Positions 18,491 to 56,761 of a DNA stretch of 64,000 nucleotides are shown piece by piece; position 1 is the first letter of the stretch; each line of letters starts with the position of its first letter. The notes below the pieces were generated by a model. It searched no databases, was not told where the DNA came from, and saw nothing but the letters and a program-made list of their open reading frames with translations. Position numbers and translations under genes: made by a program. The stretch comes from Laetmonice hystrix (Eukaryota). The stretch lies in the NCBI GenBank assembly GCA_965235115.1, contig OZ249436.1, forward strand, positions 23,314,001 through 23,378,000, given 5' to 3'.

Positions 18491-20263
18491 TTAATTAGTA
18501 ACACGCAAACGTTGACGGATATCAACCAAAAGTTTACCGAGTTCATTACGACCGGTGTACACCCCCTGTGTCAGGTGTTCACTTGCATAGTTCTCGCCTG
18601 CTCCCCAGAAGGGGTCCCGGGTCGATTCGACTAGTGGTTCAGGATAAGTGCTTAATAGTTCGTTACGTAGGCGGTCATGCTGCAGGTATTTGCACATATT
18701 GATTTCCATCATTACTCTAAGGCGAGCGTTATACCAGGGATGGTCATCGGGGAGGACAACTAGTTTCCCGATCCCTAGTATTTTGTAGGGATTTTGTTCA
18801 CTTAGTACCTCTTTGGCCCGTTCGTATTGCCCACAGAAAATACATTTAGCGTACTGATATGCCATTTCATTGCAGCTAAAGTTCATAGCATCCAGTGTAG
18901 TACCATCTTCCTTAGCAGGGGCGTATGATATGGTGGCTTCGTACATATTACTGAGGGGTGCATTGGGTCCGTTAAAGATTAGCCCCGAAGCAGTTTTACG
19001 GACTCGCTGAGTTGCGGTACTTGGCCGGTCACGATGATCGGTTGCTGCAGCATCATTTTGGCGTCCAGTGCCCTGGTCCTTGTCGGCTCCTGTACCGGTG
19101 TCCGTGTTTTCCTGTTGGAGATCACGGGCATTTATGTCTAGGCGTAACGACATAGGCATGATGTCATCCGGGAGCTGTGAACTTTGACTGATTTCGTACA
19201 GTTTGCCATTAATTGTTATTCCTTCAGCATGAAGAGAAACCTTCGCCCCCTGACGTCTGTGGTATCTGGCAATCTGCCTGTATTTCCAGCGGGTTCTCCT
19301 TATCTCTGGAGGTTCGTCATAATTAAACCACACGTGTTGGCCCTCATTTGCAAGATTTTTCAGTTTCGCCTTTATCCGCATTACCTTTTCTAAGGCAGTC
19401 TTATTGCTAAAGCATACGATGATTTTGGGAGGTCGTCCGGGGTCAAGTTTGGCGTCTTTGCTGATGAGTCTCGATATTCTTAACACGTCAGGCTCATTGA
19501 GAGTTACTCCGAGTTGTGCTATCAGCTGCCAGAATTGTTTTTTGACATCTTCATTTGTAGTCATTTTGAGGCCACTTATGATTAGATTTCGGCCTCGGTC
19601 TTCATGCGCATAAAGAAGCCCGGCACTGTCCTTCCCTTTAAGGGCACAAGCATAAGTCTTAGTACTATTGAGCTCTTCTTTAATTGAGTATTGCGCTCTA
19701 GTCAGTTCATCTATTTGCTTCTGTTGGGAGGCTAGTTTTTTATTGAGCAATTTATTCACCTCATTACTTTCGTTTTGGTAGTTCTTATTATCAGCCTTCA
19801 CTTTCTCGATTTCCGATGAAACATGTGTATACATCTGTGTAAACTTAGCATCTAACTCGTGCTGCATGGCTAAAATATCTTCCTTTTTCGCCATAGTTGA
19901 AAGTTGGTTGTTCATATTTGCAAGTAGTGCAGAAATGTTACCCAGCTCTATGTTTGTCGCAGGAGTGCAGGCGCTTGTAACAGAGTCACTATTGCTGGGC
20001 ATATGTTCGGTCACACCTGGGTGATCATGTGTAATAGGTAAGGGTGTCTTTTCGGGCTCCCCACCTGTGCTCAACTCGTTGTGTGATACTTCATTATCAG
20101 ACATATTTTCACGGATTTCACTTTCAGTATGAGTATTTACATGGTCTTTTACACGTTTTGATTGGTTTCCCACACTGTTCGGTGATAGTTGGCCGGATCG
20201 CGACCGTTTTTTCCTTCCCCTAGGTTTGGTTTGCTTACCGGGGCCTACTTGCTGTTGACTCAT
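18491..20263 (-). CDS. LINE-B ORF1p: basic N-terminus, coiled coil, L1-type RRM/CTD and C-terminal NADAR (YbiA/DUF1768-like) domain
   Basis: Intact 590 aa. RNLIISGL...RPPKIIVCF...VWFNYD...ITINGKLY is ORF1 RRM/CTD-like. The C-terminus FNGPNAPLSNMY, NEMAYQYAK, KYLQHDRLRNELLST, LVESTRDPFWG, GRNELGKLLVDIRQRL is the NADAR signature. Confidence 0.88.
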   Translation of the reverse strand: MSQQQVGPGKQTKPRGRKKRSRSGQLSPNSVGNQSKRVKDHVNTHTESEIRENMSDNEVSHNELSTGGEPEKTPLPITHDHPGVTEHMPSNSDSVTSACTPATNIELGNISALLANMNNQLSTMAKKEDILAMQHELDAKFTQMYTHVSSEIEKVKADNKNYQNESNEVNKLLNKKLASQQKQIDELTRAQYSIKEELNSTKTYACALKGKDSAGLLYAHEDRGRNLIISGLKMTTNEDVKKQFWQLIAQLGVTLNEPDVLRISRLISKDAKLDPGRPPKIIVCFSNKTALEKVMRIKAKLKNLANEGQHVWFNYDEPPEIRRTRWKYRQIARYHRRQGAKVSLHAEGITINGKLYEISQSSQLPDDIMPMSLRLDINARDLQQENTDTGTGADKDQGTGRQNDAAATDHRDRPSTATQRVRKTASGLIFNGPNAPLSNMYEATISYAPAKEDGTTLDAMNFSCNEMAYQYAKCIFCGQYERAKEVLSEQNPYKILGIGKLVVLPDDHPWYNARLRVMMEINMCKYLQHDRLRNELLSTYPEPLVESTRDPFWGAGENYASEHLTQGVYTGRNELGKLLVDIRQRLRVTN

Positions 20264-21891
20264 GTCATGTAGCTTGTTTCTACAGCGTTGGTAGAGTTGA
20301 TGGCGTCAGGTACATATATCCGTTGATCAGAGTCCAGTAGGGTGCCACATCTGGTATTTGGTCACTTATATCACATCAGCACATATTGGGTATAGATCCG
20401 TGTTATTGGCGCATTGTGATTCCCCCTAGATTCCACGTAAAAAAGAAACTTTCAGGAGCCCTAAAACGCCGCGTCTCAAACGGCCGCCATCTTGATATTT
20501 TTTGAGGGTACTTGCTGAGGGTACACAAAAGAGGTTACTTAAACAGATACGTAAATGTATTTTGTTGGATGTTATCTTAGTAGGTGAAATTCTCTGTTTG
20601 TTCAAATACAGGGCAGCGCCGGCGACGACTGGGTGTGCGTATTTCCGACCTCTAGATCTATACTATAGACTAACGTTAGTATGGATCCGGAACGGACAAC
20701 ATAAGTAGGTTGCGCTACGTGTTCAAGCAGACACTGACGGCACAGAGTGAAGCAACCCGTTTCGGGTACTAGTCCTGAGCGATCTAATTTTTATCAGTTC
20801 CCGGTCACTCGGTGCGCCTGCCGATGCATTTGAGCGATGGACGCATTATTTACGGGAGGTGTTAAGAGTTGCGACAGTGACAATGCCGGGCTTGCTGAGA
20901 TTCTACTCGACAGGTGCGATTTTAATTAGACGTTTGGTCACTTGAGCCAGCCGCGAAATCGGCCGGGGCTTGTAGGATCGCCGGTAGATAGGCATACAAT
21001 CAAAGTCGTTACCGATGCCATCTTGTCTGAATGTGTCAACAAGCAGGTGCGCGTCACGTGACACCATGGAATTCCCCTGTCCGTTCCCCGTCCCAGTTCA
21101 AATGGCGTCTCAATGCGCAAGAACGGATTAACAGTGCACGGCTGACGAATTCATGTTAATATGTCCAGATTAGCGTTCCTTTCTCAGCTAAAAGGCAGCT
21201 TCGTCCTAGGATAGCGTTCTGCTTGATGTTTACAGCGTTTGGGGGAAATATAGGAAAATTGTCAACATTGGATGTATTGTAATTGGTTTAAGACTTTCGC
21301 ATGTACCACCCGCTCTTTCCTTCACCGAGGCCTTTGTATGTGCTAATGCGGAATTGTTTGCACTGGGATTTATGATCAGTAGATCCAGGCGATATAGGTA
21401 TGCCATACTTTTAAGATACACCCTCAATGCATGACCCCCCCCCCCCCCCCCCAACCCACACACATCCACATATTTTCTACAGGGACCTATATTATGACAA
21501 TTTTCTCTATTCGAACTGGCTACTTCTTGTCCTTGGCTTCCGGCGCTACTTTAAAGTAAGCCCAGCTTCAAAGCTCGAATCTCTTCTTAGCGTAGGGCAA
21601 GTTACAAAGAAATATTACACTAACTAACCTACACTAACCTTTATACGCGTTTCAACTCACCCATATTGGAGAGAAAAGGCAATAATGTTGAAAATAAATA
21701 TAAGCTGCTGCCACATGTAGCTTCAGATGTCACACCTCGGTAACATGAGACAAGGACACCGCCAACATGTCCACGAGCGGCAGGTGTGACACATGTGACG
21801 TACAAGTACAAGACTGATACGGTATAACATTCACCAAGTGTCTCCACAAGAATGACCGCAAAAAAATATGGAACAACCACCTACTGTTTAA

Positions 21892-23160
21892 AGCCCCAGT
21901 CCCACCAAAGCCGATTGTACGACGTTCTATGCCGTTCTATCAAGATCTGAGATTTAGTTTACGTCGTGATGAATCGTGATGAAATTATGAAAACCCGAAG
22001 ACCTAGCTACGAATCTATCATGTTCTATCCCGACATCGGCCCGACCTTCCCGACAGCGCAACGACTAAAGCAACGTTCACTGCCGACCTATGCAGATTGA
22101 GCTTCGACCTCTCAAGATCCCGGCCCGATGTATGGCGACCTATACCAAGATTGACAAACGATGTAGCAACGTTCTATGCCGTGCCCCAGCCGAGCTACGA
22201 CCTGTCCCGATGACATCTGGTCTAGATCAGGGCTAAAGCCCCAGTCCCACGAAAGCCGAATTAGCTACGACGTGTCACGATCTGATAAATCGTGTAGAAT
22301 CGGGAAAGGTCCTAACTCGGTCGTACAGTAGTCTTGATAGATCCCCATAGGTCGGGATAGGCCACGATTGCACCCCGACAATTTTAAACTGTTTAAAACA
22401 ATCGGCACTGGTCGGGAAAAAGCTCAAATCGGGAATATACCGTAGGTCAAACGTTGCTCAGTCGGGAATAGTCGGGGGACAATCGGGATAGTTCGTTGTT
22501 CAGTCCTGGTTGATCGTAGGACAATCGCCAGACATTTCCTAGATCTAGCCCTGACGTCATCGGGACAGGTCGTCGCTCGGCCGGGGCTCAGACGGCATAG
22601 AACGTTGCTACATCGTTGGTCAAACATCGGGTCGGGTTCTTGATAGGACGTAGCTCAATCTGCATAGGTCGGCAGAGAACGTTTCTTGGTCGGGAAGGTC
22701 GGGGGGATGTCGAGATAGAACATGATAGCACGCATCGTGATCGTTGAGAGATCTTTGGAAAACCGTTGCCCAGTCGCCGTTGAACGTGGCAATTCGTAGC
22801 TAGGTCTTCGGGTTGTCATTATTTCATCACGATTCATCACGACTTAAAATAAATTTTAGATCTTGATAGAACGGCATGGAACGTAGTACAATCGGCTTTG
22901 GTGGGACTTTTTTTTGGCAATTTTCCTACGATAAACCAGGACTGAACAACGAACTATCCCGATTATTCCCCGACTATAATTCCCGACTGAGCAACGTTTG
23001 ACCTACGATATAGCCCCGATCTTGAACAGTTCACAATTGTCGCGACCTATGAGGATCTATCAAGACTACTCTACGACCGAGTTAGGACGTTTCCCGATTC
23101 TACACGATTTATCAGATCGTGACACGTCGTAGCTAATTCGGCTTTGGTGGGACTGGGGCT
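21892..23160. mobile_element. PIF/Harbinger-like MITE family H1, composite, near-identical to 13354-14619
   Basis: Same TIRs and internal second left TIR. TAA target duplication at 21889-21891 and 23161-23163. Confidence 0.88.
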
Positions 23161-24282
23161 TAATAGGGCGTAGCCGGTATTGCCGGGGGGCGCAAAAATA
23201 GTACATTTATGTAGGTGATGTTACAAAGTATCAGCTTATGGATATGATTTCCATGTTATGTAATTGCCAAGATGGGGTGTTCCGGCAAAAAAATGAAGCA
23301 AACAAACACCCCCACACACACCCACACACACACACAAACACCCAACAGGGTAAGTATAGATTTGATTTCGTTATTTCCCTTGGTGATTTCGGTGTTCAGC
23401 TTGGATCTTCGTATATCCCTTTGGTTATTTCAGTTAGAAGATTTCTATATATTTTTTGCGATGATTTCAGTCTTTAGGTGGCAGGCAATCATGTGGAATT
23501 AGGTGGGACGACGTAGATTAAGGAGATTATAGGAATCCACATGACTTGTGGCCACACATTGTGCCTGCGCGATGAGCCAAATTGATTATAAATCATGAGA
23601 TAAATTAAATCCATCAGACAGAGGCGATTTTCATGGAGGAGGGGGGGGGGTTAATACGGGAAACCACGGGCACAGTAGCCTGAAGACGCTATCAATATGC
23701 AAATACAGCCCGCAACAAAGTTGATAGGTAGCAAATTGTATTAGCACATAATTTATTGAATTTCATAGATACATCAAAGGGAAGGTGCCGGTTTATTGAC
23801 GCCTCGCGTGAAGCGTCAGTAGAAATGTCAATGACACCAAGGATCTTAAGAAATTAATTGTCGATGGAAGTCTGATTTGCCGCTCGTTCGCTGTATGGCC
23901 TAGGTCTACGATAAGAGGGATGACTTTTTCTATATCGCCCACCATTCTGACGGTCATCTTGGATTTTGCATCCTCACAGGATTGGGCCGGTAACGGTAAT
24001 GAGAAAAACTGATGCTAAGCCACCTGACTATTATCGTGTGACTTCTCTCTCACGACGATTGGATTTATCCAATCTTGCCGGCGATGCTCCCCGAAATTGT
24101 GGTGTGGAAAATCGTGTGGCTAAAAAAGCGATTTTTCACACGAATCGTGGCACTGTCGGCGATGCATCGCCGATGCCCATACGACGTGAAAATCGGCTTA
24201 GTGGACATCGGGTTTTGATGCTCCCCGACATCGAAGGAGCCACACGATTGTCGTGTAGAAAATCGTGCGGCTGTGTCCTTAA

Positions 24283-25484
24283 AGGCTCAGTCTCACTGGG
24301 CATTTTTGGCCTCGGGGATGTTCTCCCGATCTTAATTGAAGAGCCTCGGGAGGCTTCGGGAACAGGTTCCCCGGTGTTTCGAGGAAGCCTCGGGAGCGTC
24401 GGAAGCCATGTGGAACCATCGGGAGGCATCGGGAGAACTGCGAAAAATTTCAATGCCTGCATTGAAATTCTTCCCGATGTGTTCCCGACGTTTTGTCGGT
24501 AAAACAGGCCGGGGAGGCAACCCCGTAGCTTTCCCGAGTCCCGGGGAAGCCCCGGGGATGCTTCCCCTGAGCTTCCGCGAAACCTTCGTCCCCCCGAACC
24601 TCGTGTGTTGTTTCGGCGAAGGATCAGGGAACCTCCGGGGATATTTTGATCTCCGCCGCATGTCCGGCGACCTCTCAGCGACCTGTCGGTGATACATTCC
24701 CGATGTGGGTTTGCATTCCCGAATATTCGCCGAAATGTCGGTGATGGTTGAAAGTGCATTCTTCCCATACCTCCCCAATGCTTCCCCGAGGCACCGGGGA
24801 AGCATCGGTGAGTACTTGCGAACCATCCCCGGTGCCTCGGGGAAGGGTTATTGGGGAGGCACCGGGGATGGTTCGCAAGTACTCACCGATGCTTCCCCTA
24901 ATCTACGGGGATATTTCCCCGATGGTGTTTTAAATTCGGGGTAGCTCCGGGGCACCTTCGCCGATTATCGCTGAAGGTACCCCGGGGCTTTCCCGGCCAT
25001 CGGGAGCCATCCCCGATGATTCATGGCCATTGTTCGGGGGACATTCTCTGGACCATCCCCGATGCCTAATGCGTGCCATCTGTAATGGGACTGCTCCGTT
25101 GTTTGGGCCAAAAACTTAGGGAGCATCGGGAGCCATCGGGAGCCGATTTGTGTATTTCTACATCGCCGATGATTTTTCCCCAGTGGGACCTAAGCATTAG
25201 GGGAAGCATCCCCGGGGCTTCCCCGGGCCTCGGGAAAGCTACGGGGTTGCCTCCCCGGCCTGTTTTACCGACAAAACGTCGGGAACACATCAGGAAAAAT
25301 TTCAATGCAGACATTGAAATTTTGTGCAGTTCTCCCGATGCCTCCCGATGGTTCCACATGGCTCCCGATGCTCCCGAGGCTTCCCCGGAACACCGGGGAA
25401 CCTGTTCCCGACGCCTCCCGAGGCTCTTCAATTTACATCGGGAGAACATCCCCGAGGCCAAAAATGCCCAGTGGGACTGAGCCA
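24283..25484. mobile_element. PIF/Harbinger-like MITE family H2 (GC-rich, ~915 bp) plus an adjacent partial inverted copy
   Basis: Ends (A/T)GGCTCAGTCYCACTGGG ... CCCAGTGGGACCTAAGCA (25196) with TWA flanks. 25197-25484 is a reversed partial copy ending GACTGAGCCA. Confidence 0.82.
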
Positions 25485-25561
25485 TCAGCATAAGCGGGCA
25501 ACCATACTGCCGAACCACCCTATGGAAGGGATCATCGTAACCATATGAGAATAAAGTACTA

Positions 25562-26800
25562 GAGCTGGTGACACATACAAGCGTTTACCGCATCCGTACA
25601 CCGCGTCCAGTCATCGCATCCGTCCAAATGGGTTTGGACATTATGGTTTACAACCAAGCATGACACATACCTCCGACCACGATTATCGGGTGCGATCAAA
25701 CGGATCCGTTGATCGCAATTTTTGAACACTGCTTAATTTTTGCGATGAACGCGTCGGTAAACGCAAGGGGGACTCCATATTATGACGTCAAATTGGGGAA
25801 GCCCTCACACCAACTATGCCGCGGGAATATACAACCCTGACAAAGCAACAGGTTGGGGAGCTGATAGAGGGTGTCAGGAGACACCCCTGTCTATAATGAG
25901 GACACATATTGCACCATGACACAGAGAGGTGTCAAAATGCCTGGAAGGCAATCAAAAGTACACTACGAACGGAATTGAGCGGTGAGTAGCTAGACTGTGT
26001 GTGATGGTAACATGTTACGGACATATTGGCCCGTATAGGAATCGTGCAGTAGGAACCCGGTTAACCCATGTACCAGGCACAGTTACTTTCTTATCATGTC
26101 ATCATCGACATATATCCCCAAAAGGCGTAAATGCGGTATTTCAGGGGGTCACGACAGGGTGTCCCTTGCACTGCTCTCCCAATAGTCACAGACCTGACTT
26201 TTTTCAGACATTACACCCAGCCCCTCTAGAACCACTGCAAATCATATTACAGGGCTGCAAAACGAATTCATATTCCAGCAAACAAATTATTTCGGGTGTT
26301 TGGTGAAGAACAATTATTGCGACGAATGGACGTTTTGGTTTCGTCGCTTGTGTGTGTCATGTGTTGCCGCATGTTTGCCGTCCGTTCATCGCATCAGGTA
26401 CCGGGTGCGTCAAACGCTACTGCGATTACCGCAGGTATGTGTCACCGGCAGCCACCTTTTCATCAACGCATCCTGACATCCCGGGTACTCTTCACCTTGT
26501 ATGATCGGGATCCTCTTGTAATGCCGCGCTTGAATTTCTGCCAGGGTGTTCCAATATGCTGGCTGTTCTTCATGCCGGAATCTCAGGATCGCCTCGCAAA
26601 TAATTATTGTCGTACTGGTCTGTAAAGCATGACATACACAAGCGGCGAAACCAAAACGTCCATACGTCGCAATAGATTTTCTTCACCAAACCCACGAAAT
26701 GATTTGTTTGCTGAACTATGAATTCGTTTTGCAGCCCTGTAAAATGATTTGCAGTGGTTCTAGAGGGGTTGGGTGTAATGTCTGCAAAAAATCAGGTCAT
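25562..26800. mobile_element. Palindromic MITE-like element(s) with an internal inverted segment
   Basis: GCTGGTGACACATAC (25564) and GTATGTGTCACCGGC (~26394-26408) are inverted. ~26190-26355 is inverted relative to ~26635-26798. Confidence 0.55.
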
Positions 26801-28637
26801 AAATCAAGTGCATCAGCCTGCCCCAAGGCCTAAATATCATAGAAATTTGAGACAGAGCCGCTGATATCAGATATCACGTTTTGCAGATTTTGCATGGTCT
26901 ATCCATGGACTGACACTTAAATGACCATAAACGGGATGCCAATCAGTTTTTTTAGAAACGGTACTTTGAATGTGATTCACTGCGTGGTATCATGCTCCAA
27001 TCGTAGTGGCTTTTAGTTTAATTGCCTGTTCAAAAACGTAGTGAAACAAGTGATTTGCCATTAGTAGACCGATACTGAGTTCCCAACACATCCAGTACTA
27101 TATTCCAATGCAAAATTCTTTTCTCGCATATACTTTTCCATTCGGAGAGTCGCAGTGGGTTAAGTGAACGAAAGTTGCGGTCAGTGATGTGATCGACATC
27201 TAAATTCACAACACGATTCTTCCCGCCTCCACCACAATAATTCACAACACGATTCTTCCCGCCTCCACCACAATAATTCGCGCGCTCTGTGCCACCGTCA
27301 ATCGTCTGCTCCAGCCAGGCGTGAAATTGAAGCGTCCAAGATTCGGCCACAAGGCTGTCTATAAAATGGTATAGATTTTCATTCACGGGAGCATGTATGT
27401 GACAAATATGTTGCTGTCGCTCCTTCAGAGAAGTGGAGGTCGAGGAACAATGGATCACGCGCGGGTTAAGCGTGCTGTCTTGGACCCGTGTGGTCATGTC
27501 AGCCAATGATCGCGCTCTGGTTCGTCATCTATTCCGACGACTTCCAGGTCTAATCCCCGGGCGCTGACCACATGCTCAAGTTATCATGAGAAGCATAGTC
27601 TGGCGCAAAGTTTGACTATTCAATCAGAATATTACCTTATAACCACTGACACAGTCAATCCCTATACACGCTGACATTGAAAGATATATCGAGGAATTCC
27701 TTACAAATATCACACTATGCAATTTTCTTGATTATTTTCTTTTTATTTAAACTCCTCACAATATTCGTTTTCTCCACATGTCTAGCTCCTTCAAATATGA
27801 CTTCAACCACCAAGGCTTGTCAATCTCTTCTAAAGCCCCCGCCACACTTCCGGGATCAAGCGACGGTTTGGAATGATCCGTAGCACAAAGCGATCAGGCA
27901 GCTTCCGTGACCTGGAAAGGGGATGGTGCGTGAAACTCCGTATCTAGAACGGGTTGAGAAGGGTTGACACGGCTCCAGTAGGGGTTACTACGACAACTGG
28001 ATCACACATAGCCGACCAGCCGACCAATGGTTTCAGCCGAGGCTGCACCCGTCGGTTGCCTGTCGCCTGAAGGCTGCGACACACTATGCGATTGTTTCAG
28101 CCGATAACACAAGCGTCAGCTATCGTTTCTGTTGTCGGCTAGTGTGTCCAGGGCCCTGTTTCATAAAAAATCTTACATTTTAGATTTAATCATATTGTCG
28201 ATATACGATAGATTCTGTTTCATAAAAGATCGTTCTTGTCGAAGAACGATAAATTTGTCACGACCAAATGAAAAATCGCTCAAGTGTTTCATAAAATCGT
28301 TCTTGGCTTTTTTTCAATCGTTATTTCCTCGAAAATAGTCGTTGGCCACGACCACCCCGAGGGTTGTCGTAGGATAATATAAAAACACGAAATGAGTGAA
28401 TTTTGGCGAAATTTTACTACAACCGTCATTTATGGAGAGGAGAAGGAGGCGTCGGTGGTTCTTCGCGTGAATAAACCCAATTAATACTAGGTTTTACGGT
28501 GACTTATTCGTGAAACATATCGTTATTTCCTCGAGAAAAAAAAATCGTTGGCCACGACCACACCGAGGGTTGTCGTAGAATAATATAAAGGCGCGAAATA
28601 AGTGAATTTTTGCGGAATTTTACTTCAACCGTGAATT

Positions 28638-39613: not shown

Positions 39614-39647
39614 TACCAAAAATCAGGCCCAAAGTCCTTCCCATCAC

Positions 39648-40249: not shown

Positions 40250-41249
40250 CATCACGCGCACACAAAATGGTCAGGCATTCTGCACATGCACACCACCAGC
40301 GCTGGGGCCACTCCACGGAGGCCTGTAGGGCGCTCCAATCTTCTCCTGATAAAACGGTGACAACGTGTCAATGGTGTAAGAAGCTTGGTCATACCGCTGA
40401 CGCTTGCTATGCGCTCAACAGGCTTAACACCCCCAACTCTTCTCACCCGCAGGGAAACTAGCTGCCCACTCTCTCGCCAGTAGTACTCCGCCGACTCCGA
40501 GAAGAGTGGCAAGCAAATTCCCAATCAAACATACACATGTCAGAAAGCCAAACGGAAGCAGGCGGTCAAACAAACGTCTAAGACTACAGTTGAGTCGACC
40601 TAACCCTGGTAGTAGTCCAGTCCTCTCCATTTCCTTCTCAGATGGTACAAAACTACACACCCTTATCGACTCAGGAGCAGAGGAGAATTTCCTCTCTGCT
40701 GCTGCTTTGGCAAAAATCCCCAGAAAAGATATCATACTTAGGGAGCGCCATCCTCAGCAGATTATAGTTGGTAACGGGAAATTGGTAACAACACACACAC
40801 GGGTGATAGTTCGATTACAGGCTGAATCGCTCATTCTACATGTACCTTTCCTGATATATGACGAGTGTCACAAAGACATAATTTTGGGTGGTCCGTTCTT
40901 AAACAAGCATGACGCTGTACTTTTGTATGCCCGTAATGCTTTGTGTATTAAACCTGAGGCCATTATTTTGCTGAAAGAGTCTATTACCATCCCAACATCG
41001 GCGGAGATCAATGTGATGGGAAGGCTTACAAAGAAACAACTAGATGGGACATTAGGGGTGTGTGAGAACCTACACCGGCGTTCTATTACCACATTTAAGG
41101 GACTCCTACTGGGGAAAACGTTAGTCACAACATCGAACAACCAGGTCCCTGTTAGGTTGCTTAACCCTTTTCCTCACCCAATCAAGGTAAGAAAAAATAC
41201 CCCACTGGCCCACTTTGCAATCTGTGCCAGACAGAACATAATCTCATTA

Positions 41250-42149
41250 TGGCTCAGTCCCACTGGGCATTTTTGACCCCGGGGATGTTCTCCCGATGTA
41301 AATTGAAGAGCCTCGGGAGGCGTCGGGAACAGGTTCCCCGGTGTTCCGGGGAAGCCTCGGGAGCGTCGGGAGCGTCGGGAGCCATGTTGAACCTTCGGGA
41401 GGCATCGGGAGGCATCGGAAGAACTGTGAAAAAATTCAATGCCTGCCTTGTCGGTAAAACAGGCCGGGGAGGCAACCCCGTTGCTTTCCCGAGCACCGGG
41501 GAAGCCCCGGGGATGCTTCCCCTGAGCTTCCGCGAAACCTTCATCCCCCCGAACCTCGTGTGTTGTTTCGGCGAAGGATCAGGGAACCTCCGGGGATATT
41601 TTGATCTCCGCCACATGTACGGCGACCTCTCAGCGACCTGGCGGTGATACATTCCCGATGTGGGGTTGCATTCCCGAATATTCGCTAAAATGTCGGTGAT
41701 GGTTGAAAGTGCATTCTTCCAACACCTCCCCAATGCTTCCCCGAGAGTCCGGGAAAGCATCAGTGAATTTTTCGAACCATCCCCGGTGCCTCGGGGAAGG
41801 GTTGTTGGGGAGGCACCGGGGATGGTTCGCAAGTACTCACCGATGCTTCCCCTAATCTACGGAGATATTCTCCAGATGGTGTTTCAAATTCGAGGTTATC
41901 GATTATCGGTTATCCGATTTTCGGCGAAGGTACCCCGGGGCTTTCCCGGCCATCGGGAGCCATCCCCGATGATTCACGGTCACTGTTCGGAGGACAGTCC
42001 CCGGACCATCCCCGATGCCTAATGAGTTTCATCTGTAATGGGACTGCTCCGTTGTTTGGGCCAAACACATCGGGAGCATCGGGACCCATCGGGAGACAAT
42101 GTGTGTATTTCTACATCGCCGATGTTTTTTCCCCAGTGGGACCTAAGCA
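41250..42149. mobile_element. Family H2 MITE inserted in Gypsy pol between PR and RT
   Basis: TGGCTCAGTCCCACTGGG ... CCCAGTGGGACCTAAGCA; flanks TTA/TGA. Confidence 0.85.
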
Positions 42150-44233
42150 TGAGACACAGATGCCAACACACACACAAACGTGATATACGTGAGATGGCGG
42201 CTCACAGTAGCCCTACCACGAGACAAACATAGCAGTCCCGAATGGACGTACAGTTTGATTTGTCCGACTCAGCTCTAACTGACGACCAAAAAGACAAATT
42301 TTTGCACATGTTACACTCAAATCGGGATGTATTTGCCCAGACAGTGAAATACTTGGGGCACTGTACTCAGGTGGAACACACCATCGAACTTATACCCCAT
42401 AGTCATCCTGTATGCAGTCGCCCCTACAGACTGAACCCAAAGCTCCAGGATGTTCTCAACGAGCAAGTTGATGAGCTCCTGGATGCTGACATAATTGAAG
42501 AGAGCAACACTAGATGGAGATCACCCACAATACTGGTAAAGAAAAAGGATGGTACGTACCGTATGTGCATAGACTACCGTGAACTTAACAAAATAACATT
42601 TAAACAACCTTTTCCACTCAGTATGGCAGAGTCTATTTTCATTCATGTGGCATACCGTAAACCTCAGTATTTCTCCTGTCTAGATTTTTTGTCTGGGTAT
42701 TATCAGCAGTCCATCCATCTGGATTCAAGAGAGTACACAGGCTTCACCACAAGCTGGAGAAATTTTGTTTTTAAAAGGATCCCCGTCGGTTTAGTCAACG
42801 CCCCATTTGCATTTAGCCACCTAATCTCGACTGTCCTGTCCGAATTGACGCCTTCAATTTGCGCAGCCTATTTAGATGACATCCTCATCTATTCATCAAC
42901 GTTTGAGGAACATATAAAACATGTCGATGCAGTCCTCGGTCAACTCAGGAAAGCTGACCTCAAACTAAAACCCACAAAATGCGAATTTGCAAAAAGCAAA
43001 ATTGAGTTCCTGGGTCATGTACTCACACGTGAAGGTATCCTACCCCAGCGCAGCTTCTAGACAAAGTACAGGAGTTGGCCATACCAACCAATGTGAAGGC
43101 TGTACGTAAATTCATCGGCACGGTTTCTTATTATAAATCCTTCATTCCCAAATTCTCACAGATTACTAGACCATTGTATGACCTTACTAAGAAAAACAAA
43201 AAGTTTGTATGGACTCCAGAACTCTGAAAGATGCGCTTCTCGCACCTCCCGTACTGATTCACCCTGACTTTGACCGGATTGTCTCCCAAGTCGCCTTCGT
43301 CACTTCCGACCCAGACCGCGCGAGAGGCGAGAACCAAGATGGTGGTTAACGGGAGTACAGCTATTGTTTACATTTCCTTGACAATACATACTGAGCACAC
43401 GACATGGGTCCTAGATACATATTATGTGCGAGTACCTATACTAATATCATACCTACGCAAACCCCTCGTTTCTCCTCCATAAATGATCCCGGCTCTTTGG
43501 CGCCGAGCTCGGATTTATGCAGTCAAACTTGGAGAACGGGAATGCTTTGCTGTAGGCTACATTTTATTCATATAGTAACCCGTCGATCACCCCATGCAAT
43601 GGGGGACTCTACAAACATTATAATATGGTAAATGATAAATCTATATAAGGTGTAACTGATATATGTAACATAACATAATACCATAGTAATATAACACATA
43701 ACTGATAATACATTATATGGAAATACATAGTCCAAAATACATAGATATAGGTATAGTAATGCCTTATTAGGTGGAGACAATGCCACTAAGCGGAATCGAA
43801 GATGAAGCTGGAGCCACCAAAGAAGGCAGGAGAAAAGATTCCGAACGCAACCCGCTGAACCGCACCAGGAGCCAAATCTGAGCATTATATATACCGTCAG
43901 ACACAACTTGAAGAATCAGGCACAGATCATCTCCTGGCCTATAACGAACGGATAACGGAACCCATCATCATCCAGTCCTATTAGGGTGGTGTACCTGCAA
44001 CAAGCATAATCAAAGCTTTGAATCCTAAGACATACGGAAGAAGGCCTTAGATCCTTGGAGTCAACATCATAACGTCAGGTTAACAAGTTATAACACCCAG
44101 CTGCTTGACCAAACAGGAAGCACCCCCCCCCCCCATTAAACTCCATTACACCATGGCATACTTTACTTATCCCATTCTACCACCTGGGACCATACTATAA
44201 ATATTTAATAATAAATAACCGAACCAGGCAACA

Positions 44234-44377: not shown

Positions 44378-44392
44378 ACATCTAACATCTTA

Positions 44393-45456
44393 AGGCCCGG
44401 CCACACAGAGCCGACTACACCCAACCCGATGGTCGGAGGCCCGGGGGTCCAAATCGGCCAACTACTCAGTCAGTCTGGTATATGCCCAATCATGCCACAC
44501 TGAATGCGATCCGAAAGTCGGGAGTGGGATGCCACACTAGCGACAGCACTCGTGACCAGTATATACTATTGTAACTATTCATTCCCCTAGCGGTAGTTCC
44601 CACTCCGCCATGTTGTTTGTGTTGTCCCGCTCGCAGGGTATCTTGGGAGTAGCGTTTGTATGGTGCGCGCTGTGATTGGCTGGTAAGCAGCCCGACTGTT
44701 GAGTCTGGTCGGTAGGTATGCCACACAGGCCCGACTAGGCCCGACCAGACCAAACCGTTTGGTCGCTCATCTTGTGCAGGACAAGATGAACGACCGGACT
44801 GGTCAGTCGGTGAAAAACACCCGACTACGGCCGACTGACCGTGCCAGACAGCGCCGACTACCCCCGACTCGACTCCCCCAGACCAGCGGGTCGGGGGTAG
44901 TCGGCTCTGTGTGGCCGGGCCTCTAAGGCCCGGCCACACAGAGCCGACTACCCCCAACCCGATGGTCGGAGGCCCGGGGGGTCCAAATCGGCCAACGACT
45001 CAGTCAGTCTGATATATGCCCAACCATGCCACACTGAATGCGATCCGAAAGTCGGGAGTGGGATGCCACACTAGCGACACCACTCGTGACCAGTATATAC
45101 TATTGTAACTATTCATTCCCCTAGCGGTAGTTCCCACTCCGCCATGTTGTTTGTGTTGCCCCGCTCGCAGGGTATCTTGGGAGTAGCGTTTGTATGGTGC
45201 GCGCTGTGATTGGCTGGTAAGCAGCCCGACTGTTGAGTCTGGTCGGTAGGTGTGCCACACAGGCCCGACTAGGCCCGACCAGACCAAACCGTTTGGTCGC
45301 TCATCTTGTGCAGGACAAGATGAACGACCGGACTGGTCAGTCGGTGAAAAACACCCGACTACGGCCGAATGACCATGCCAGACAGGGCCGACTACCCCCG
45401 ACTCGACTCCCCAAGACCATCGGGTCGGGGGTAGTCGGCTCTGTGTGGCCGGGCCT
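44393..45456. mobile_element. Two head-to-tail copies of a ~530-bp PIF/Harbinger-like MITE (44393-44922, 44926-45456)
   Basis: TIR AGGCCCGGCCACACAGAGCCGACTAC; flanks TTA / CTA / TTA. Confidence 0.88.
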
Positions 45457-45861
45457 TTACGAAACCAGCGGAGTCCCCGACGGGTAAAGACAATTCCGTC
45501 GGCCCCGTATTTCATGGGCCGGTCAGACAGACGACGACGCGATCATCGGAACGCCAGTGTCCCATGCTGAATAGTTGATAAACGACGCGTGCGCCCTGCA
45601 GTTTGACGCCCACTGTGCACTGCCGATGGAACCGTCGCGTCGTAAATGTTCAACATCTCAACATTCCCGACGCGACAAATCCGTCGGCTGAATTGGCCCG
45701 ATGCGCGTCGGCTGCCCCGGCCACACAGACCGATGCATACCGACCCAATCGTCCCAGACGATCGGGTCGGTCTGTGGCGTTTATTTAATAAAACTTTATT
45801 TAATAAAACGGACAGCGGACCCCCCCCCTCATTTTGCCCTTAGGCTTATGCTGGACCCCGC

Positions 45862-46555
45862 TGAAGTTGGGTGGACCCCCAAACTGATCAACAACACAAG
45901 TCCAGATTTGGAGTAACGACTTCTTTGTTCACAATAGTGCGTCGTCTTGGTGAGTGTGGCCTGGAGAGCTTTCTGTAGCGTTCGCTCTGGATCCCCGTTC
46001 CCGTCTATATCTTCCTAGCTAAGCCCCGTCCCTTTATACTGCTTGCCTATCCTCCCGGGTTTTATAGCGATCTATTTTTAGCGCTGAGCCAGCATCACAT
46101 GCCGCTGCGTCAGCCCCCGGGTTTTCCCCAGAATGCTGACTCATCAGTCACAAGACTCCCAGCTCATACTCTTAACTATTGATACCTATTTTTAGGTTTT
46201 CTGGTTCTAACCGGTTTTGACTGGTTCTGACCGGTTCTAACCGGTTTTGGCTGGTCTCGTGATGCTGACTCATCCGGTCACAGGACGCCAATATCCTGGA
46301 GTTGTTTACACCACTCTGCACTAACATCCGGGAGTTATTTATACTACTTATCTTAACATCCGGGAGTTGTTTACATTGTTCCACCACTGTGGTGCTGACA
46401 TCAGCATCCTGTTATCTACATCCTTCATCTGAACCATTACTGGAATTTCTATACATTCGTATATATATATCTATGTTTTTGCACACTTCAAGACTAACTA
46501 CTTTTAATATATATTCTTCTTATTATTTTACTATTCTAAACACGACCTTGTTACA
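45862..46555 (-). repeat. 3' LTR
   Basis: TG...CA bounded (TGAAGTTGG...TGTTACA); near-identical to 56762-57451. Confidence 0.92.
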
Positions 46556-46571
46556 TACCTTCCCCCCTTTT
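46556..46571 (-). promoter_or_regulatory. Polypurine tract
   Basis: Minus strand AAAAGGGGGGAAGGTA immediately before the 3' LTR TG. Confidence 0.85.
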
Positions 46572-46919
46572 AAAAAGAAGCTCCTTTCTTTTTTTATCTT
46601 ATAACTTTCTTTACAAGGTCGTGTACCCCAGTTATGTACATATATACATGGGCTCATGTCCACTACAATGTGGGTTTCTTTATATATACGCCCATCTTCG
46701 TTTTATCTACCACCTTGTGGTTTACATATATATTTGCTTATATATTATATTATTTGCTTATATATTTTCGATATACATCTCCCCTAGTGTTATAATTTTA
46801 CCCCTACCTTATCCTATATTTGGTTATTATATATAGTTCGAGTTATTCATTATTTTCCCCCCTAACTAACCTTCTTCCTATATATATACCCCTTAACAAC
46901 TAAGGCCACACTCACCGCG

Positions 46920-47562
46920 TTACAATGATGTTGGCATGCAATTCTTAATTCTACTACAGTCTTCTTCGACGTCCATTTCAGTTTCGTACAATAATCTTCG
47001 TGGTCTCCCTTCCCGGTGGACACCGTCCTCCCGCTCGCATAACATTGGCATCATTGTTCGTGCTGTCCCTCACTCTCCTCATCAGAGATCGCAATCACGT
47101 CCATATCGCTCCCTTCACTGGAGATCGTTATTATTGTTCCGTTACTTATTGTCTCCCACCGGTCCCCCCCGATCTCGACCCCCCCACATGGGCTCGGCCA
47201 TGGGGTCGAACCCGGGTCCGAACATCTCACCGGCCCATCGTCTCGCCCGATCTTCCATGGCTCCCGCTTCCTCCATCGTTCGGTCGACCCATTGTCGCGT
47301 TCGTGCCACCATATCCTCATTTTCAATTTCATTCAGTAGGTCCCTCGTCAGCTCATCCTCAGTTGACGAGGGGGATGCTGGGGGTGGCGGCCTCTGGGGC
47401 GCCACCCGTGCCACGTTACTTTTTTCGCCGTTCTCAAACGTCACTTGTTGGCCCTCCACTGTACGCGTATGCGTAGGCCCCCTCTGGTTGGTCAGGCGGC
47501 GGATCAGGTCTCCTAATGGCTCGGGGACTCCTGGGCCCTTGGATTGTTGGTTCAAGGCCATC
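46920..47562 (-). pseudogene. Accessory ORFx: acidic/proline-rich, probably frameshifted, unknown function
   Basis: MALNQQSKG...PPPPASPSSTEDEL... (to 47142), with further acidic segments in other frames (IITISSEGSDMDVIAISDEESE; ETEMDVEED). Confidence 0.45.
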
Positions 47563-48027
47563 TTGGTTTCGTTTGGTAGGCGGTAGGTCTTCAACTGTTA
47601 ATATTGTCGGGTCAGAAATTCTTTCCAGAATGAGTTGTGCAACCCGGCGCCCCGTCTTTATATGGAATGTCCTGGATCCTGAATTTGATATCAACATGCC
47701 GACGTTTCCTCGGTAGTCCGGGTCAATCACTCCCGCTTTTACATCTAGTTCATGACGTAGGGCTAGCCCTGATCGTGATGCTACCCTTCCGTATGTACCC
47801 GGAGGCAGGGCCAGTGCAATGTCAGTCCTCACTAGCACCCTCCTTAACGGATGTATGATGTATTCGTAGGCGCTATACAGGTCCAGGCCTGCCGCTTGTT
47901 CCGAGGCCCGGGTTGGCACGATCGCTTTTGGTGACAGCAACTTTACTTTCAGTACTTCATTGTTGGCTGACGGCGGGGTCTTCGGCACTTCACTTTTGTT
48001 CGGTAACCAGAACCTTGGGTCGCACAT
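47434..48027 (-). CDS. dut: dUTPase (trimeric type) of the LTR element
   Basis: AAGLDL, RSGLA, GVIDPDYRG, RVAQLI (motifs 1-4). Motif 5 is degenerate (RNQDGLEPT). Confidence 0.88.
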   Translation of the reverse strand: MCDPRFWLPNKSEVPKTPPSANNEVLKVKLLSPKAIVPTRASEQAAGLDLYSAYEYIIHPLRRVLVRTDIALALPPGTYGRVASRSGLALRHELDVKAGVIDPDYRGNVGMLISNSGSRTFHIKTGRRVAQLILERISDPTILTVEDLPPTKRNQDGLEPTIQGPRSPRAIRRPDPPPDQPEGAYAYAYSGGPTSDV

Positions 48028-49895
48028 CTTCTGTTAAAGATAACTCCACAGTAGGTTGATCACTTTTTGTCTTAGCCTTTTTCCCATACTTTCGTCTCGC
48101 ATAACTTCCCAGGATCAGGATACCCACAATAGCGATAATTACAACCAGCACCAGGGCCGTCAGGGGAATGGTTGGCTTTGTATTGATCCCTCCCCAGTAT
48201 TTACGCTCATTTCCTTTCAGCATCTCTTTTATATTGTGAATTGGTAGCTCCCCTATATCCTGAAGAGGAGTGCCAGCTTCTTAAATTTAGGGTATTCATT
48301 TTCCGACGCCGAATAATTCCAAATGCCCGGCATTCTGCGTCTGGCTACCATTTGTGCATCTAAAAACGTGCGTAGCTCTCTGTCTGATTTTTCCTTAAAA
48401 TAAGGAGGGAACGACAGGTATTCTGACAATCCCACGCACCCTGCTTTAATTTTGATTTCTGTGATCGGCGGGCTAACCGTCACCTCACGTTTGTGCCTGC
48501 CTTCAAGGTTATAGCAGGATTCAACAATTTTAAACGTTTTGTTCGAGGCCACCGCCCACATCCCCTGCACAATATATCTAGCAGTGGGTGCTGACTGAGC
48601 GGCTCTCAGAATTTTCTTACAATTTTGGGCGACGGCCTGCTGATTACTCTGATACAGCGCCATCACACACGATGGTACACTGGCCAGCGCCATTGCTGGT
48701 TTTCCAATCGTGCAATAATTTATCTCTTTCTGGTCGCACTGGGTACTTTCGAAAGGGGAAACATAAATAAAGTGAGCCTTATCCCGTGCAACCCCTATCA
48801 TTTCTGTTTCTAAAGCGTATGTTGCTTCTAGAGGCATGTCCCCTTTTATAACCGGCAAACTTATTATTTTCATTAGTTGGAACTCGTCTTCTGGTCTGAC
48901 TAGCGGGAAGGTAGTGATTATATGGAACTTTCCTCGCCCCGGTATCAATAACGTTGGCAGATGCCTGTAATACCAATTTAAGTCGTTGGTACTGTCGGGG
49001 GCAAGTGGAAGTGTAAGAGAATCAGGAGCCTGTTTCTGAATATCTTTTAGTAGGTCACCCAGGATGGTGGTGTTTATCAATACGGGAGGCAGGCGACCCC
49101 GGACACACTCTGTGACTTGTTCCTGTAATAATATCAGGGTGGAGTCCAACTCGCCTGGCTCAATGCGAGCGTTTGCAAGATTCCCTGATAGTTTGTCGCC
49201 CACCTTAATATAGCAACTTCCGTCCTTACCCCAGTTCTCAATATTGTCGTTAAAGCGTCGAGCTGACTCCCGAGGCTTGTAACGGCCCCCTGCAGTGTTT
49301 TTACCGCATTTCTATTTTTCTTTACTTCCACATGGGTTACATTTATTAGCGTCAAGCTTTGATCAATCGCGTGTACTATGCTTTGTTGATTTGCCCCTAG
49401 CCTCCTTATTTGCTGTCTCAATTTATTCAGGTCTTTCTCGGTCGCCGTGCCAAAGAGGGAGGACATAACTTCCCCTAATATTGGGAGTATAGACCTCTTT
49501 CCCCTGTGCCCTCTTTCTTTTTCATTTACTATATCCAAAATCCCTCTAAGTCGTTTGGTCAATAATTCCTGTCTCAGTACCATATCCCTTAGCTGCCTCT
49601 CTGCTACTTCGTCATGTCCGGCCCGTATTTTGTCAATTCTTTTCTTTGTCATCGCCGTTGCGTTAACTGTGGCTACCTCGGCCATAAATATCCTATTCTT
49701 TCTCCCTATTTCAGTTAAACTCCTATCGAGACTAGCTATTTGCTCCCTCCAGGGGGTGGTGTTTATCATAATGGTCACCACCCAACTTGAGTATGTATTA
49801 TACATTTTGTTTCGGGGGACAAAATACACCCCCGTCTGGCCCTGTGCCATAGTTGCAATCACACTAATGAGGGCTACTATCGTGGCCAACGCCAT
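47990..49895 (-). pseudogene. env: Envelope glycoprotein, class I fusion (baculovirus F / errantivirus Env-like), two frameshifts (~49150, ~48255)
   Basis: Signal peptide MALATIVALISVIATMAQG; furin site RGKR followed by fusion peptide SILPILGEVMSSLFGTAT; heptad repeat; Cys-rich region; TM LTALVLVVIIAIVGILILG plus basic tail. Confidence 0.87.
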
Positions 49896-49935
49896 CCTCA
49901 GGGTTTTTCGCCCTGCAAAAACAATAAAATATAAC

Positions 49936-52900
49936 TTTACTGGAAACGCTTCGTTAGCCACTTCGCGTAGCCTTCCAATTGGCTAGATTTATCTTTCATC
50001 CTAAATTCGTCTCGAACAGACATTAATAGGACTCCCAGCATATTTCTACCGGTCACTTGGCCCTTCTCATAGGCGGGGTCCCCAAACTTACTCCCCCAGC
50101 CCAGAACGTATCTCGGGTTGCTTCTATCAATTTATGGGGGTAAGTATCTATCAACACTTGGCGTTCCCATGGGTTTTGGCTGAATTTTAGATGCAATATC
50201 ATCTTTTTTATGCCCACCCGTTTTTGAAACCATTCTAGGGTTGGTCGCACTGTGCCGCCCAATTTCTTTGCTGCTGCCGCGTCATAGGCTTCGGCCACAG
50301 CCCGCGCTAGCTCTGGCTGGCTGCACTCATCACATTTTATGTATTGGTATAAGTGTTCGCTCGTGGGGAATGACCGCCCGTCAAATTGGATGGCGTTCTC
50401 GTTCTGGTGGAAGTTACTTAATACCGAATTCTCTCCGCAGAACGTTATTCCTGCCCTTGTCACCTTTTGTTTCACCGGCTCATCCGGCTGAACCGTTCTA
50501 TTATGGAGTATAGGCCCTTTTTCTATGCGTGCCTCCTCCCGATAGGCAGGTAGCATCCCTTCTCCTTCCCACCTTCCTAGAAGGCATTCTATGCTCATGG
50601 GAGGGTCCTCTTCTTTGAACCTTTTGTTTGAGTTTCCTGGCTCTATGTCTTCCCCTTTTCTCTTTCCTAAGTCAACCCTTGCAGGGTCATGACCTAGTTC
50701 CCCTGTCCTACTTTTCTTTGGATCTACGTCTCCTCTTCCAGGCCTAACCCTTTTTCCTAAGCTAGTTTCCCTGGGATACCTATTGGCGCCCCCACTAGCT
50801 CCTGGGAGAGGTAGATCACTGGGTCGCCCTTCATCATTTTTGGGCCTGCCCCTCTTCTCCCGTGTGCCCGTGTTTTGTTCCACAGGCTGTCTGACCCTTT
50901 TTCGGAGGTTATATCTGGGCTCATTATTAACTTCAGCCGGCCCGGGCAGGTGGGGTGGTCCCACCTCATCGTCAGTGTCCGGTAGCGGGGTGTCCTGCGC
51001 CGTCAATTCGGGCTCAGGGGCCCCTGGGACTTCTCCCCCTCTATCAGGTTCCCTTGGCGGGGCCACCGCCTCCGGTTCGACCAGCCTAGCTGACCTCACC
51101 GGTCGTTCCCGCCCCCCATCATCTAGGTCGAGGGGCATCCCCTTCGCTCGAGTTTTATGGAGAACGTGTCTGGGCCTGTCCCGATCAGCATCCCAGCACG
51201 CTTCTGGGTGTGCTAACCGCAAGTTTTCTACATGTACCACTTTTGTTTTTCCTGTTAACTGACTCTTTATCCTGTATGTTACAGGTCCCAGCTTGTCTAA
51301 CACCCGGTAGTAGGGTTGCCATTTCTCCATCAGTTTTGCCGATTCCTCCCGGTTTATCCGCTTGATTAGATAGTACACTGGGTCTCCTATGTCGAGCTCT
51401 TTTGCCCTGGCCTTTCCTTTGAGTCTTTCTTTGTTCCGCTCCCTACTTTCTTCCATGTTCCGTTTCGTACTTACAAAGGCTTGGTGTAGCCGTTGAAGCG
51501 TTGTGGGAACGTATTCATCCCCCATGTATTTCATCTTTGGCCTCAACAGGGTATCCATGGGGAGGACGGGGTCCCTCCCGTACACCATAAAGAAAGGGGT
51601 GTGTTTCGTGGTCTCATTTACTGCGGTCCTATATGCCAGCAGTGCCCCCGACACTGCCTGATCCCATTCCAGTCCCGGCGTTTTTGCCAGTATGTCATTC
51701 AATACCCTATGGAACCTTTCCGTTTTACCATTACTCTGCGGGTGGTACGGGGTGGCATTACAAAATTCTGTTCCCTGATCTGAAATGATCAATCGGGGAC
51801 ACGAGTGTCGTGGGATGAATTTTGCCAATAGTAGCTTAGCCACTGTTTGAGCGGACTTATCTGGGGTCGGGTAAGCCTCCGGCCACCCCGACAGGTGGTC
51901 CACAATTGTCACTATGTATTTATTGCCATGCTCCGTTTCCACAAACGGCCCGCACGTATCTATTCCCACTATCTCAAATGGGTACTGCGGGATTGGCATG
52001 TCCTGCATTTCAGCTGTATGTTTCCGCATGTTTCTCTGGCTACAGGGCACGCACTTTCGTACATATCCTACCACCGCTTTATACATGCCGGGAAAATAGT
52101 ACCTCGGGCGTAGGGTGTTATAGGTTTTATCTATCCCTAGGTGTCCTAGCTTGTCATGATAGGAATCTAGTAGATTTAGGATCATTCGGGCCGGAACGGC
52201 CAATTGCATATAATGTTCCGGGTCATACTTGGTTGGCGGAACTATGTGGTACAGTAGTCCCTCGTCCATGACAAAATTATCTAGCCCTGTCGTCTCATCT
52301 CCCCCTTCCATCCGCTCTATTATCTCCTTCCACTCATCATCTTGTCTCTGGAGGTGCGCCATCTTATCTCGATTTGTTTTTAGTTCTTCGTAAGCTTTAA
52401 GGATTGGTGTCTCTTGGGGTCCGTCTTCCCCTTCCTTTTCCACACTGTCCACCTGGTTTTCAGGTGTCAGGCTGTCTGTATCAATCATTGTGACCTCATG
52501 TTCTTTGACCACCGGGCGACCCGTTTTTCTTATCCTGGAGAGCATGTCGGCCCGAACGTTATTCTTTCCGGATCTAAATTGGATGTCGCACCCATACTCG
52601 TTTATTAATATGGCCCATCTTTGTATCTTCGTGTTTTTCAGAGGTGAACAGGGACTTCAACGGCTTATGGTCTGTGTAGACTATAAAAGGTGCCCCCAGA
52701 AGGTAGTGTCTCAAATGAGTTATGCAATATACTATTGCATACGCCTCCCTTTCGATACACGGCCATTTTTGTTGACACTTGGTCAACTGGTGCGAGATGT
52801 ATTGCACAACCCTGTCTCCGTCCTCATATGCCTGAGTCAGCACCCCACCCACTGCATATAGACTAGCATCCGTATATAATTTGTACGGCCTGGTGGGGTC

Positions 52901-56760: not shown

Positions 56761-56761
56761 A

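Follow-up and report, generated by a model that had tools for sequence, protein, structure and literature searches.

We analyzed a stretch of 64,000 nucleotides from Laetmonice hystrix (GCA_965235115.1, contig OZ249436.1, positions 23,314,001 to 23,378,000 of the forward strand; hereafter the window), which lies on contig C1 of a 627-Mb eukaryotic assembly, and found that two retroelements of different classes each carry a NADAR domain fused to one of their own proteins. One is a long interspersed nuclear element (LINE), called LINE-B here, in which NADAR ends the protein of the first open reading frame (ORF1p); the other is a Ty3/Gypsy element, in which NADAR follows the integrase (IN) at the end of Pol. 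These NADARs are genuine, long-kept accessory modules of retroelements, not host exons or chance similarities. A six-frame scan of the whole window with a custom NADAR hidden Markov model (HMM) detected these two NADARs only. We are highly confident of the anatomy and evolution of the NADAR-bearing elements as described below.

NADAR domains of the LINE and the Gypsy element

LINE-B and its parts were placed as follows, with positions counted from the first letter of the window. APE, RT, RRM, CTD and aa stand for apurinic/apyrimidinic endonuclease, reverse transcriptase, RNA-recognition motif, C-terminal domain and amino acids, respectively.

14743 to 21000, minus strand: LINE-B, an L1/Tx1-like, poly(A)-tailed element recognized by ORF1, APE and RT in order; the 5' end is approximate
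18491 to 20263, minus strand: ORF1, 590 aa, with a low-complexity N-terminus, RRM-CTD, a disordered linker and NADAR
19154 to 19600, minus strand: RRM-CTD module of ORF1p, residues ~222-370 (AlphaFold2, Foldseek, jackhmmer)
18503 to 18967, minus strand: NADAR ending ORF1p, Pfam residues 433-587 (PF08719, AlphaFold2, Foldseek)
15031 to 17885, minus strand: ORF2 in two overlapping open frames, APE at 16443-17885 and RT at 15031-16500 (Pfam)

The last 155 residues of ORF1p matched the Pfam NADAR profile (PF08719; curated cut-off, 35.1 bits) with an E-value of 4.5e-28 and 99 bits. An AlphaFold2 model of residues 201-590, built from a 27-row alignment, had a mean predicted local distance difference test score (pLDDT) of 84.2 and consisted of two confident domains with a disordered linker between them. 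For the NADAR part (pLDDT ~96), the top two Foldseek matches were 8BAU, the P. nicotianae NADAR-ADP-ribose structure (E 1.9e-8, template modelling (TM) score 0.71), and 2B3W, E. coli YbiA (E 7.7e-7). The upstream domain (pLDDT ~90-96) matched 2YKP, the RRM-CTD of the human LINE-1 ORF1p trimer (E 1.1e-4, 169 columns); this likeness was found by fold search alone, and a sequence search of the RRM-CTD part against PDB gave no matches.

The two ORF2 frames matched Exo_endo_phos (E 1.7e-7) and RVT_1 (E 1.5e-38). In related copies and families ORF2 is a single frame of 1002-1055 aa; in the window copy it is split, and ORF1 remains open. The best PDB match of ORF2 from a related intact copy was human L1 ORF2p (E 1.4e-16), and a zf-RVT motif was present in one related copy. 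Based on the RRM-CTD fold match, the match to human L1 ORF2p and the zf-RVT motif, LINE-B is an L1/Tx1-like LINE whose ORF1p, as modelled, is a complete L1-type protein with NADAR gained at its end. The ORF2 sequence is consistent with the L1/Tx1 group, with Tx1 itself as a tentative label. The 3' end of the element is marked by AATAAA (14768-14773) and a run of 24 A (14743-14766). A search with the Gypsy NADAR recovered three further members of the LINE-B family, whose ORF1 frames measure 586-604 aa. The stretch holding LINE-B is flanked by copies of a ~1.27-kb element (13351-14623 and 21889-23161), of which a further partial copy ends at 12548. Its ~20-nt terminal repeats are inverted (GCTTTGGTGGGACTGGGGCTT and complement), and it is probably a non-autonomous DNA transposon.

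The second NADAR lies in the following element.

45862 to 57374, minus strand: Ty3/Gypsy element, errantivirus-like and env-bearing, ~11.5 kb (pair of long terminal repeats (LTRs) and domains)
50056 to 52656, minus strand: open Pol frame with IN, a ~240-aa low-complexity linker and NADAR (Pfam)
49937 to 50433, minus strand: C-terminal NADAR, with one frameshift near 50,09x (Pfam; AlphaFold2 of the C4 copy)
48256 to 49982, minus strand: env-like frames of the baculovirus F type (Baculo_F, 34.4 bits, E 1.3e-8; cut-off, 24.1 bits)
47437 to 48033, minus strand: dUTPase frame inside the element, downstream of env (PF00692, E 4.4e-35)

The LTRs (45862-46474 and 56762-57374) are 94-98% identical at a spacing of 10,890-10,900, and the element encodes gag/CCHC, protease (PR), RT, RNase H, IN-NADAR, a Baculo_F env and then dUTPase. 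Within the Pol frame, Integrase_H2C2, rve and Integrase_p58_C are followed by NADAR at residues 742-857 (E 4e-16, 60.1 bits). The tail of the domain (profile positions 130-163, the last helix) was found in another frame, 49937-50131 (E 9.2e-5, 23.2 bits), indicating that the window copy is frameshifted within NADAR. Its stop codon, at 49937-49939, lies inside the start of the env frame. A second copy, on contig C4, has NADAR unbroken and in one frame with Pol, and the structure model was built on this copy. The model had a pLDDT of 89.2 and a predicted TM score of 0.84, and its top two Foldseek matches were again 8BAU (E 7.4e-9, TM 0.74) and 2B3W (E 2.3e-7). The IN-NADAR order is common to the window copy, the C4 copy and a copy on contig C19 (81-88% protein identity), and a fourth copy (C10) aligned only up to residue 655. 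Env is also present in the C4 and C19 copies, and dUTPase in the C4 copy (L025:1832-2227, minus strand; PF00692, E 3.2e-26). The IN-NADAR fusion of this Gypsy family is therefore real and heritable, within a small decayed family.

Three further observations concern Gypsy sequences of the window. With dUTPase and NADAR, one element encodes two nucleotide or nucleic-acid "hygiene" enzymes. The gag region contains a 933-bp tandem duplication (54565-55797, 99% identical), by which the CCHC zinc-knuckle frame is doubled (54624-55283 and 55566-56216). In addition, a second Gypsy fragment at 40428-43057 on the plus strand encodes PR and RT with similar spacing, and no NADAR was detected in this fragment by the six-frame NADAR HMM scan.

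The initial annotation of this DNA, which was made from the sequence alone, had placed a NADAR-like domain at the end of ORF1p and after integrase at the end of the Gypsy Pol. Both placements and their coordinates were borne out by the profile matches, and the fold comparison that it called for was positive for both models. The motifs that it listed, LSNM/LSNF, E-x-x-Y-Q-x-x-K, E-S/A-T-R-D-x-F-W and G-R-N-x-L-G, are readable in both domains, and it was also right that each domain sits in a protein travelling with the nucleic acid of its element (ORF1p and Pol). That the fusion is a family feature was upheld by the window, C4 and C19 copies and by the LINE group described below; for the Gypsy family this comes down to 3 decayed copies.

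Occurrence and origin of the domain in the genome

The genome contains at least 741 candidate NADAR loci by PF08719. This is a first-look count, of which 150 were scored, and all 150 exceeded the Pfam cut-off; they sit mostly within open frames of 420-480 aa. The sampled loci were drawn from the top of the score list, and 10 of them, hand-picked down the score ranking and thus non-random, were inspected with 8 kb of context. APE/RT frames were found downstream of the NADAR-bearing ORF1 in 9 of the 10, and ORF1 and ORF2 were both open in 4. A jackhmmer search from the LINE-B RRM-CTD recovered a homologue upstream of NADAR in every other sampled ORF1 (21/21); one of these belongs to locus L001, where the frame that lies downstream matches the N-termini of LINE ORF2. 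The 20 non-Gypsy loci sampled all belong to one L1-like LINE group, whose ORF1p consists of a coiled or low-complexity N-terminus, an L1-type RRM-CTD, a disordered linker and a NADAR of the YbiA type at the C-terminus. Most of the several hundred NADAR loci of the genome are explained by this architecture. A stand-alone host NADAR was not seen among the sampled loci, that is, at the top of the score list.

A HMMER search of 1.84 billion representative proteins gave 3735 proteins at E<=1e-3, of which 528 reached E<=1e-10. All of the best 150 contained NADAR (161 domains in total), which was C-terminal in 103 and internal in 47, and five of them had 2-7 tandem copies. As examples of the latter, P0002 (Haliotis rufescens XP_048255699.1) has seven tandem NADARs and P0044 (Branchiostoma) has two, with no further Pfam domain; such tandem-NADAR animal proteins may be host genes or chained ORF1 remnants.

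A third architecture was found in another Gypsy lineage of the same genome. Two Pol frames of 1649-1660 aa (C1:23019314 and C8:28856101) have the order PR-NADAR-RT-RNaseH-IN, and the lineage is represented by loci L023:5315-9901 (plus strand), L024:1-4701 (minus strand), L043 and L044. The PR-NADAR-RT order is kept between families with identities of only 58% and 54%, whose open Pol frames span 1649-1667 aa. A relative that is 42-50% identical aligns on both sides of the NADAR segment and not across it. For the window Gypsy, the nearest family (58% identical, with many copies having open 1403-aa frames) aligns to residues 4-610 only, and its Pol is without NADAR. Since both Gypsy lineages have NADAR-less relatives, NADAR is a gain in each.

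Relationships among the domains were examined in an IQ-TREE quick tree of 84 rows and 172 columns, which is poorly resolved at depth. The rows comprised 17 domains of this genome (after removal of 7 near-duplicates), a random draw of 60 from the 161 representative domains, 6 phage or bacterial NADARs and P0160. The Gypsy C-terminal NADAR fell in a 19-row group with LINE-B, L035, L036 and similar ORF1-type proteins (SH-like approximate likelihood ratio test (SH-aLRT) 88), and its sister was the ORF1-type protein P0058 (SH-aLRT 92). Forcing it to join five prokaryote/phage rows cost 42.7 log-likelihood units, with a borderline p of 0.045 in the approximately unbiased (AU) test; note that this group was named after the tree was seen and that the long-branched pair of E. 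coli YbiA and P0160 was left out. The PR-NADAR-RT domain lies near the base of the tree, where its position is unresolved. The weak nesting of the Gypsy C-terminal NADAR within LINE-type NADARs suggests transfer between elements. On this modest evidence, the domain probably came from the LINE-type pool rather than by separate capture or from the host, and the convergent capture proposed by the initial annotation has become doubtful for it.

Three other explanations of the two domains were rejected. Recent copying between the LINE-B and Gypsy NADARs, which the initial annotation had also dismissed, is ruled out by an identity of only 32.5% over 166 aa (Gypsy C4 copy against LINE-B). A host-exon origin is ruled out because both domains are in frame inside retroelement ORFs, and chance similarity by the E-values and fold matches.

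Elsewhere in the window, we noted a second LINE RT frame (1762-4122, minus strand), a DDE_Tnp_4 (Harbinger/PIF-like) transposase frame (59418-60530, plus strand) and a YqaJ-like exonuclease frame (61002-62120, minus strand).

Conserved residues and possible functions

Key NADAR residues are E43, K50 and the subfamily-defining E125, and ADP-ribose is contacted by D86, W89, R93, D130 and W133 (PMC11543638). At the position of E125, DarT1-linked NADARs have Asp and those of phages have His (PMC11543638). Numbering here follows the P. nicotianae NADAR in that paper, and the chain numbering of 8BAU is +2. In the phmmer alignment to 8BAU, LINE-B keeps E43, K50, D86, W89, R93, E125, D130 and W133 and is without K75, R79 and Y84. 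The Gypsy C-terminal domain keeps E43, K50, W89, R93, E125, D130 and W133. The motifs of both are of the YbiA type (EMAYQYAK and ESTRDPFW in LINE-B, EHLYQYIK and EATRDTFW in the Gypsy domain), and both have the residues of the YbiA subfamily, namely Glu at E125 together with E43 and K50. We then counted as a full catalytic set E43 with K or R at the K50 position and E, D or H at the E125 position. This set was present in 22 of the 24 domains from this genome (the exceptions being L002 and L032) and in 130 of the 161 domains of the best 150 representative proteins, and the full Glu-Lys-Glu set was present in 20 of the 22 sampled LINE ORF1 NADARs.

Between LINE families, synonymous divergence (dS) was saturated: the NG86 method gave no estimate in 14 of 20 region-by-pair comparisons and values of 2.5-4.3 in the other six. 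Nonsynonymous divergence (dN) of the LINE NADAR was 0.24-0.89; in 8 of 10 pairs it was below the value for the remainder of ORF1 (in one by 0.002 only), and in 2 it was above. Low NADAR dN with saturated dS indicates that the domain has been under purifying selection in the LINE lineage.

All four NADAR classes undo the ADP-ribosylation of guanine in both DNA and RNA, and the YbiA type also acts on ADP-ribosylated cytosine (PMC12945103). Given the tethering to a nucleic-acid protein and the kept residues for hydrolysis of base-linked ADP-ribose, the reading that we find best supported, and hold tentatively, is that of an eraser. NADAR, attached to the protein by which the RNA or cDNA of the element is coated or processed, would act in cis as a glycohydrolase and strip ADP-ribose from guanine or cytosine. 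Its substrates might be the RNA or cDNA of the element or single-stranded DNA at the target site, and the outcome would be a counter-measure to nucleic-acid ADP-ribosylation, like viral macrodomains and phage orphan NADARs.

Several observations weigh against the eraser reading, and we take them up here together with the alternatives. For the Gypsy element of the window, all copies of the family carry stops or frameshifts. Only 3 NADAR-bearing copies were found in a search with the Gypsy NADAR alone, the next matches being LINE ORF1 NADARs at 33-37% identity. In addition, the ratio dN/dS (omega) of the C-terminal NADAR was 0.4-0.7 on 95-136 codons partly contaminated with out-of-frame sequence, a value not clearly below 1; omega of the integrase in the same family was ~0.3. 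Thus, the dN/dS check suggested in the initial annotation came out in favor of constraint for the LINE NADARs and without demonstrable selection for the Gypsy C-terminal family. The nearest relatives of this C-terminal NADAR are, as described above, LINE-type NADARs. Together with the closest family being without NADAR, these points suggest that the domain of this element could be a passenger, a piece of LINE-type ORF1 gained by recombination or template switching and functionless in a small dead family. We regard this as a serious possibility for the window Gypsy only, although we would sooner bet against it: in the C4 copy the domain is in frame with Pol, all catalytic residues are kept, and its end coincides with the start of env. 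Its identity to any LINE NADAR of the genome is 32-36%, indicating long divergence since any transfer.

The PR-NADAR-RT lineage also speaks against an eraser, in this case through its residues. At the E125 position one family has His and another has Tyr, the latter with Gly at D130 as well, so that the lineage is without the Glu of the YbiA subfamily. Elsewhere, the domain is well conserved (identity 51-52%, with many invariant columns). Retention of the domain therefore does not always depend on the canonical catalytic set. This would fit a binding or RNA-processing module that reads NAD- or ADP-ribose-bearing RNA ends or NAD caps, or that gives ORF1p or Pol a general extension for nucleic-acid binding, with hydrolysis not being the selected function. 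RNA processing was proposed in PMC12477816, the only paper on such fusions that we found. The catalytic sets counted above, in sampled LINE ORF1 and in representative proteins, are however unexpected for a purely structural module, and we think this explanation unlikely.

Least probable, in our view, is a nucleotide or small-molecule N-glycosidase, comparable to E. coli YbiA in riboflavin damage control, that would clear away nucleotides which are damaged or derive from NAD or ADP-ribose in the vicinity of the reverse-transcription complex. In its favor, the domains belong to the YbiA (Glu) type, and the window Gypsy family also encodes dUTPase, a classic nucleotide-pool enzyme. Retroviral dUTPases clean up the nucleotide pool near reverse transcription. 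Free nucleosides and nucleotides are also modified by ADP-ribosyltransferases (ARTs) of the ScARP type (PMC12945103). Nevertheless, the YbiA-type enzymes tested act on ADP-ribosylated guanine and cytosine in DNA and RNA (PMC12945103), the RNA-coating chaperone to which the domain is fused points to a polymer substrate, and a retroelement has no riboflavin-pathway context.

A last point against the eraser concerns the writer enzyme. The initial annotation had suggested a search of the host for guanine-modifying ARTs, and no guanine- or DNA-modifying ART emerged: none of PF01375, PF14487, PF03496 and PF22596 had a match in the genome, in weak searches that matched exon by exon, were silent on control genomes and had no CARP-1 profile among them. 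With PF14487 (DarT) at 0 matches under these weak conditions and both NADARs adjoining retroelement genes, a pair of the DarTG1 type was not found. Guanine-N2 DNA ADP-ribosylation has been found in six clams (PMC11209040), and guanine ARTs of the CARP-1 type occur mainly in bivalves (PMC12945103). We thus treat a link between the NADAR elements and nucleic-acid ARTs in this genome as a hypothesis. Extending the eraser reading, base ADP-ribosylation (on guanine N2 or cytosine, by CARP-1/pierisin-like or other ARTs) might be an animal defence against retroelements and viruses, with NADAR as a recurrent counter-defence that was fixed once in ORF1p of the L1/Tx1-like LINE radiation, handed on at least twice to Gypsy elements and, in separate events, built into invertebrate nidovirus replicases; we consider this wider scheme doubtful as a whole.

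Known systems and significance

The initial annotation could not tell whether such fusions had been described, and they have been in part. From a Repbase query, several Tx1 LINEs of Crassostrea gigas were reported to have a YbiA-type NADAR in ORF1, and NADAR was reported in the Gypsy Pol of the brown alga Ectocarpus (PMC12477816, Genome Biol 2025). Literature searches combining NADAR or YbiA with retroelement terms found no further paper on NADAR in retroelements. LINE-B resembles the C. gigas elements in having a YbiA-type NADAR on a LINE ORF1 protein, and its ORF2 is consistent with that group. The oyster elements take up one sentence in PMC12477816, whereas here ORF1p was modelled, copies and catalytic residues were counted, and selection was examined. 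As in Ectocarpus, the Gypsy elements here have a Ty3/Gypsy Pol with fused NADAR, and the PR-NADAR-RT elements are comparable to the algal one in position. The window element differs from it in its animal-type host and in having NADAR after integrase, beside env and dUTPase, an arrangement that is not described in PMC12477816.

Compared with the YbiA-subfamily hydrolases 8BAU and 2B3W, the domains have the same fold (TM 0.69-0.74) and keep E43, K50, E125, D130, W133 and W89. Those enzymes are free-standing and ~160-190 aa long, whereas the domain here forms part of ORF1p or Pol and, in LINE-B, does not keep R79, Y84 and K75. The DarT1-NADAR system and the orphan NADARs of T4-like phages, which neutralise DarTG1 (PMC11543638, PMC11257639), provide a parallel in that a mobile parasite carries the eraser without the writer, and the proposed logic, in which base ADP-ribosylation of its own nucleic acid would be undone, is shared. 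Unlike in those systems, no DarT was found in the genome by the weak PF14487 search, the residue type is Glu rather than Asp or His (except in one His Gypsy family), the host is eukaryotic, and the enzyme is fused. NADAR has also been inserted repeatedly in replicases of invertebrate nidoviruses (PMC11848433). The retroelements resemble these viruses, and viral macrodomains, in that domains processing ADP-ribose were inserted repeatedly and independently into the replication polyproteins of genetic parasites of invertebrates, although nidoviruses are RNA viruses and the function is putative on both sides.

Relative to the literature found, the following is newly seen: an animal-type Gypsy element with NADAR after integrase, beside env and dUTPase; a PR-NADAR-RT Gypsy lineage in the same genome; an ORF1p that is, as modelled, a full L1-type chaperone plus NADAR; counts of the conserved catalytic residues; and a hint of LINE-to-Gypsy transfer.

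To our knowledge, LINE ORF1 proteins have been seen as RNA chaperones without enzymatic activity. An apparently competent glycohydrolase within a widespread ORF1p would alter this view, and if the defence and counter-defence scheme is true, ORF1p would be an enzyme as well as a chaperone. If NADAR is an eraser, nucleic-acid ADP-ribosylation would be a form of restriction of animal retroelements, paralleling bacterial DarT defence and phage NADAR counter-defence, and the guanine ARTs of bivalves would gain a physiological role. Even without an eraser function, a single genome would here show one accessory domain that has moved between LINEs and LTR elements.

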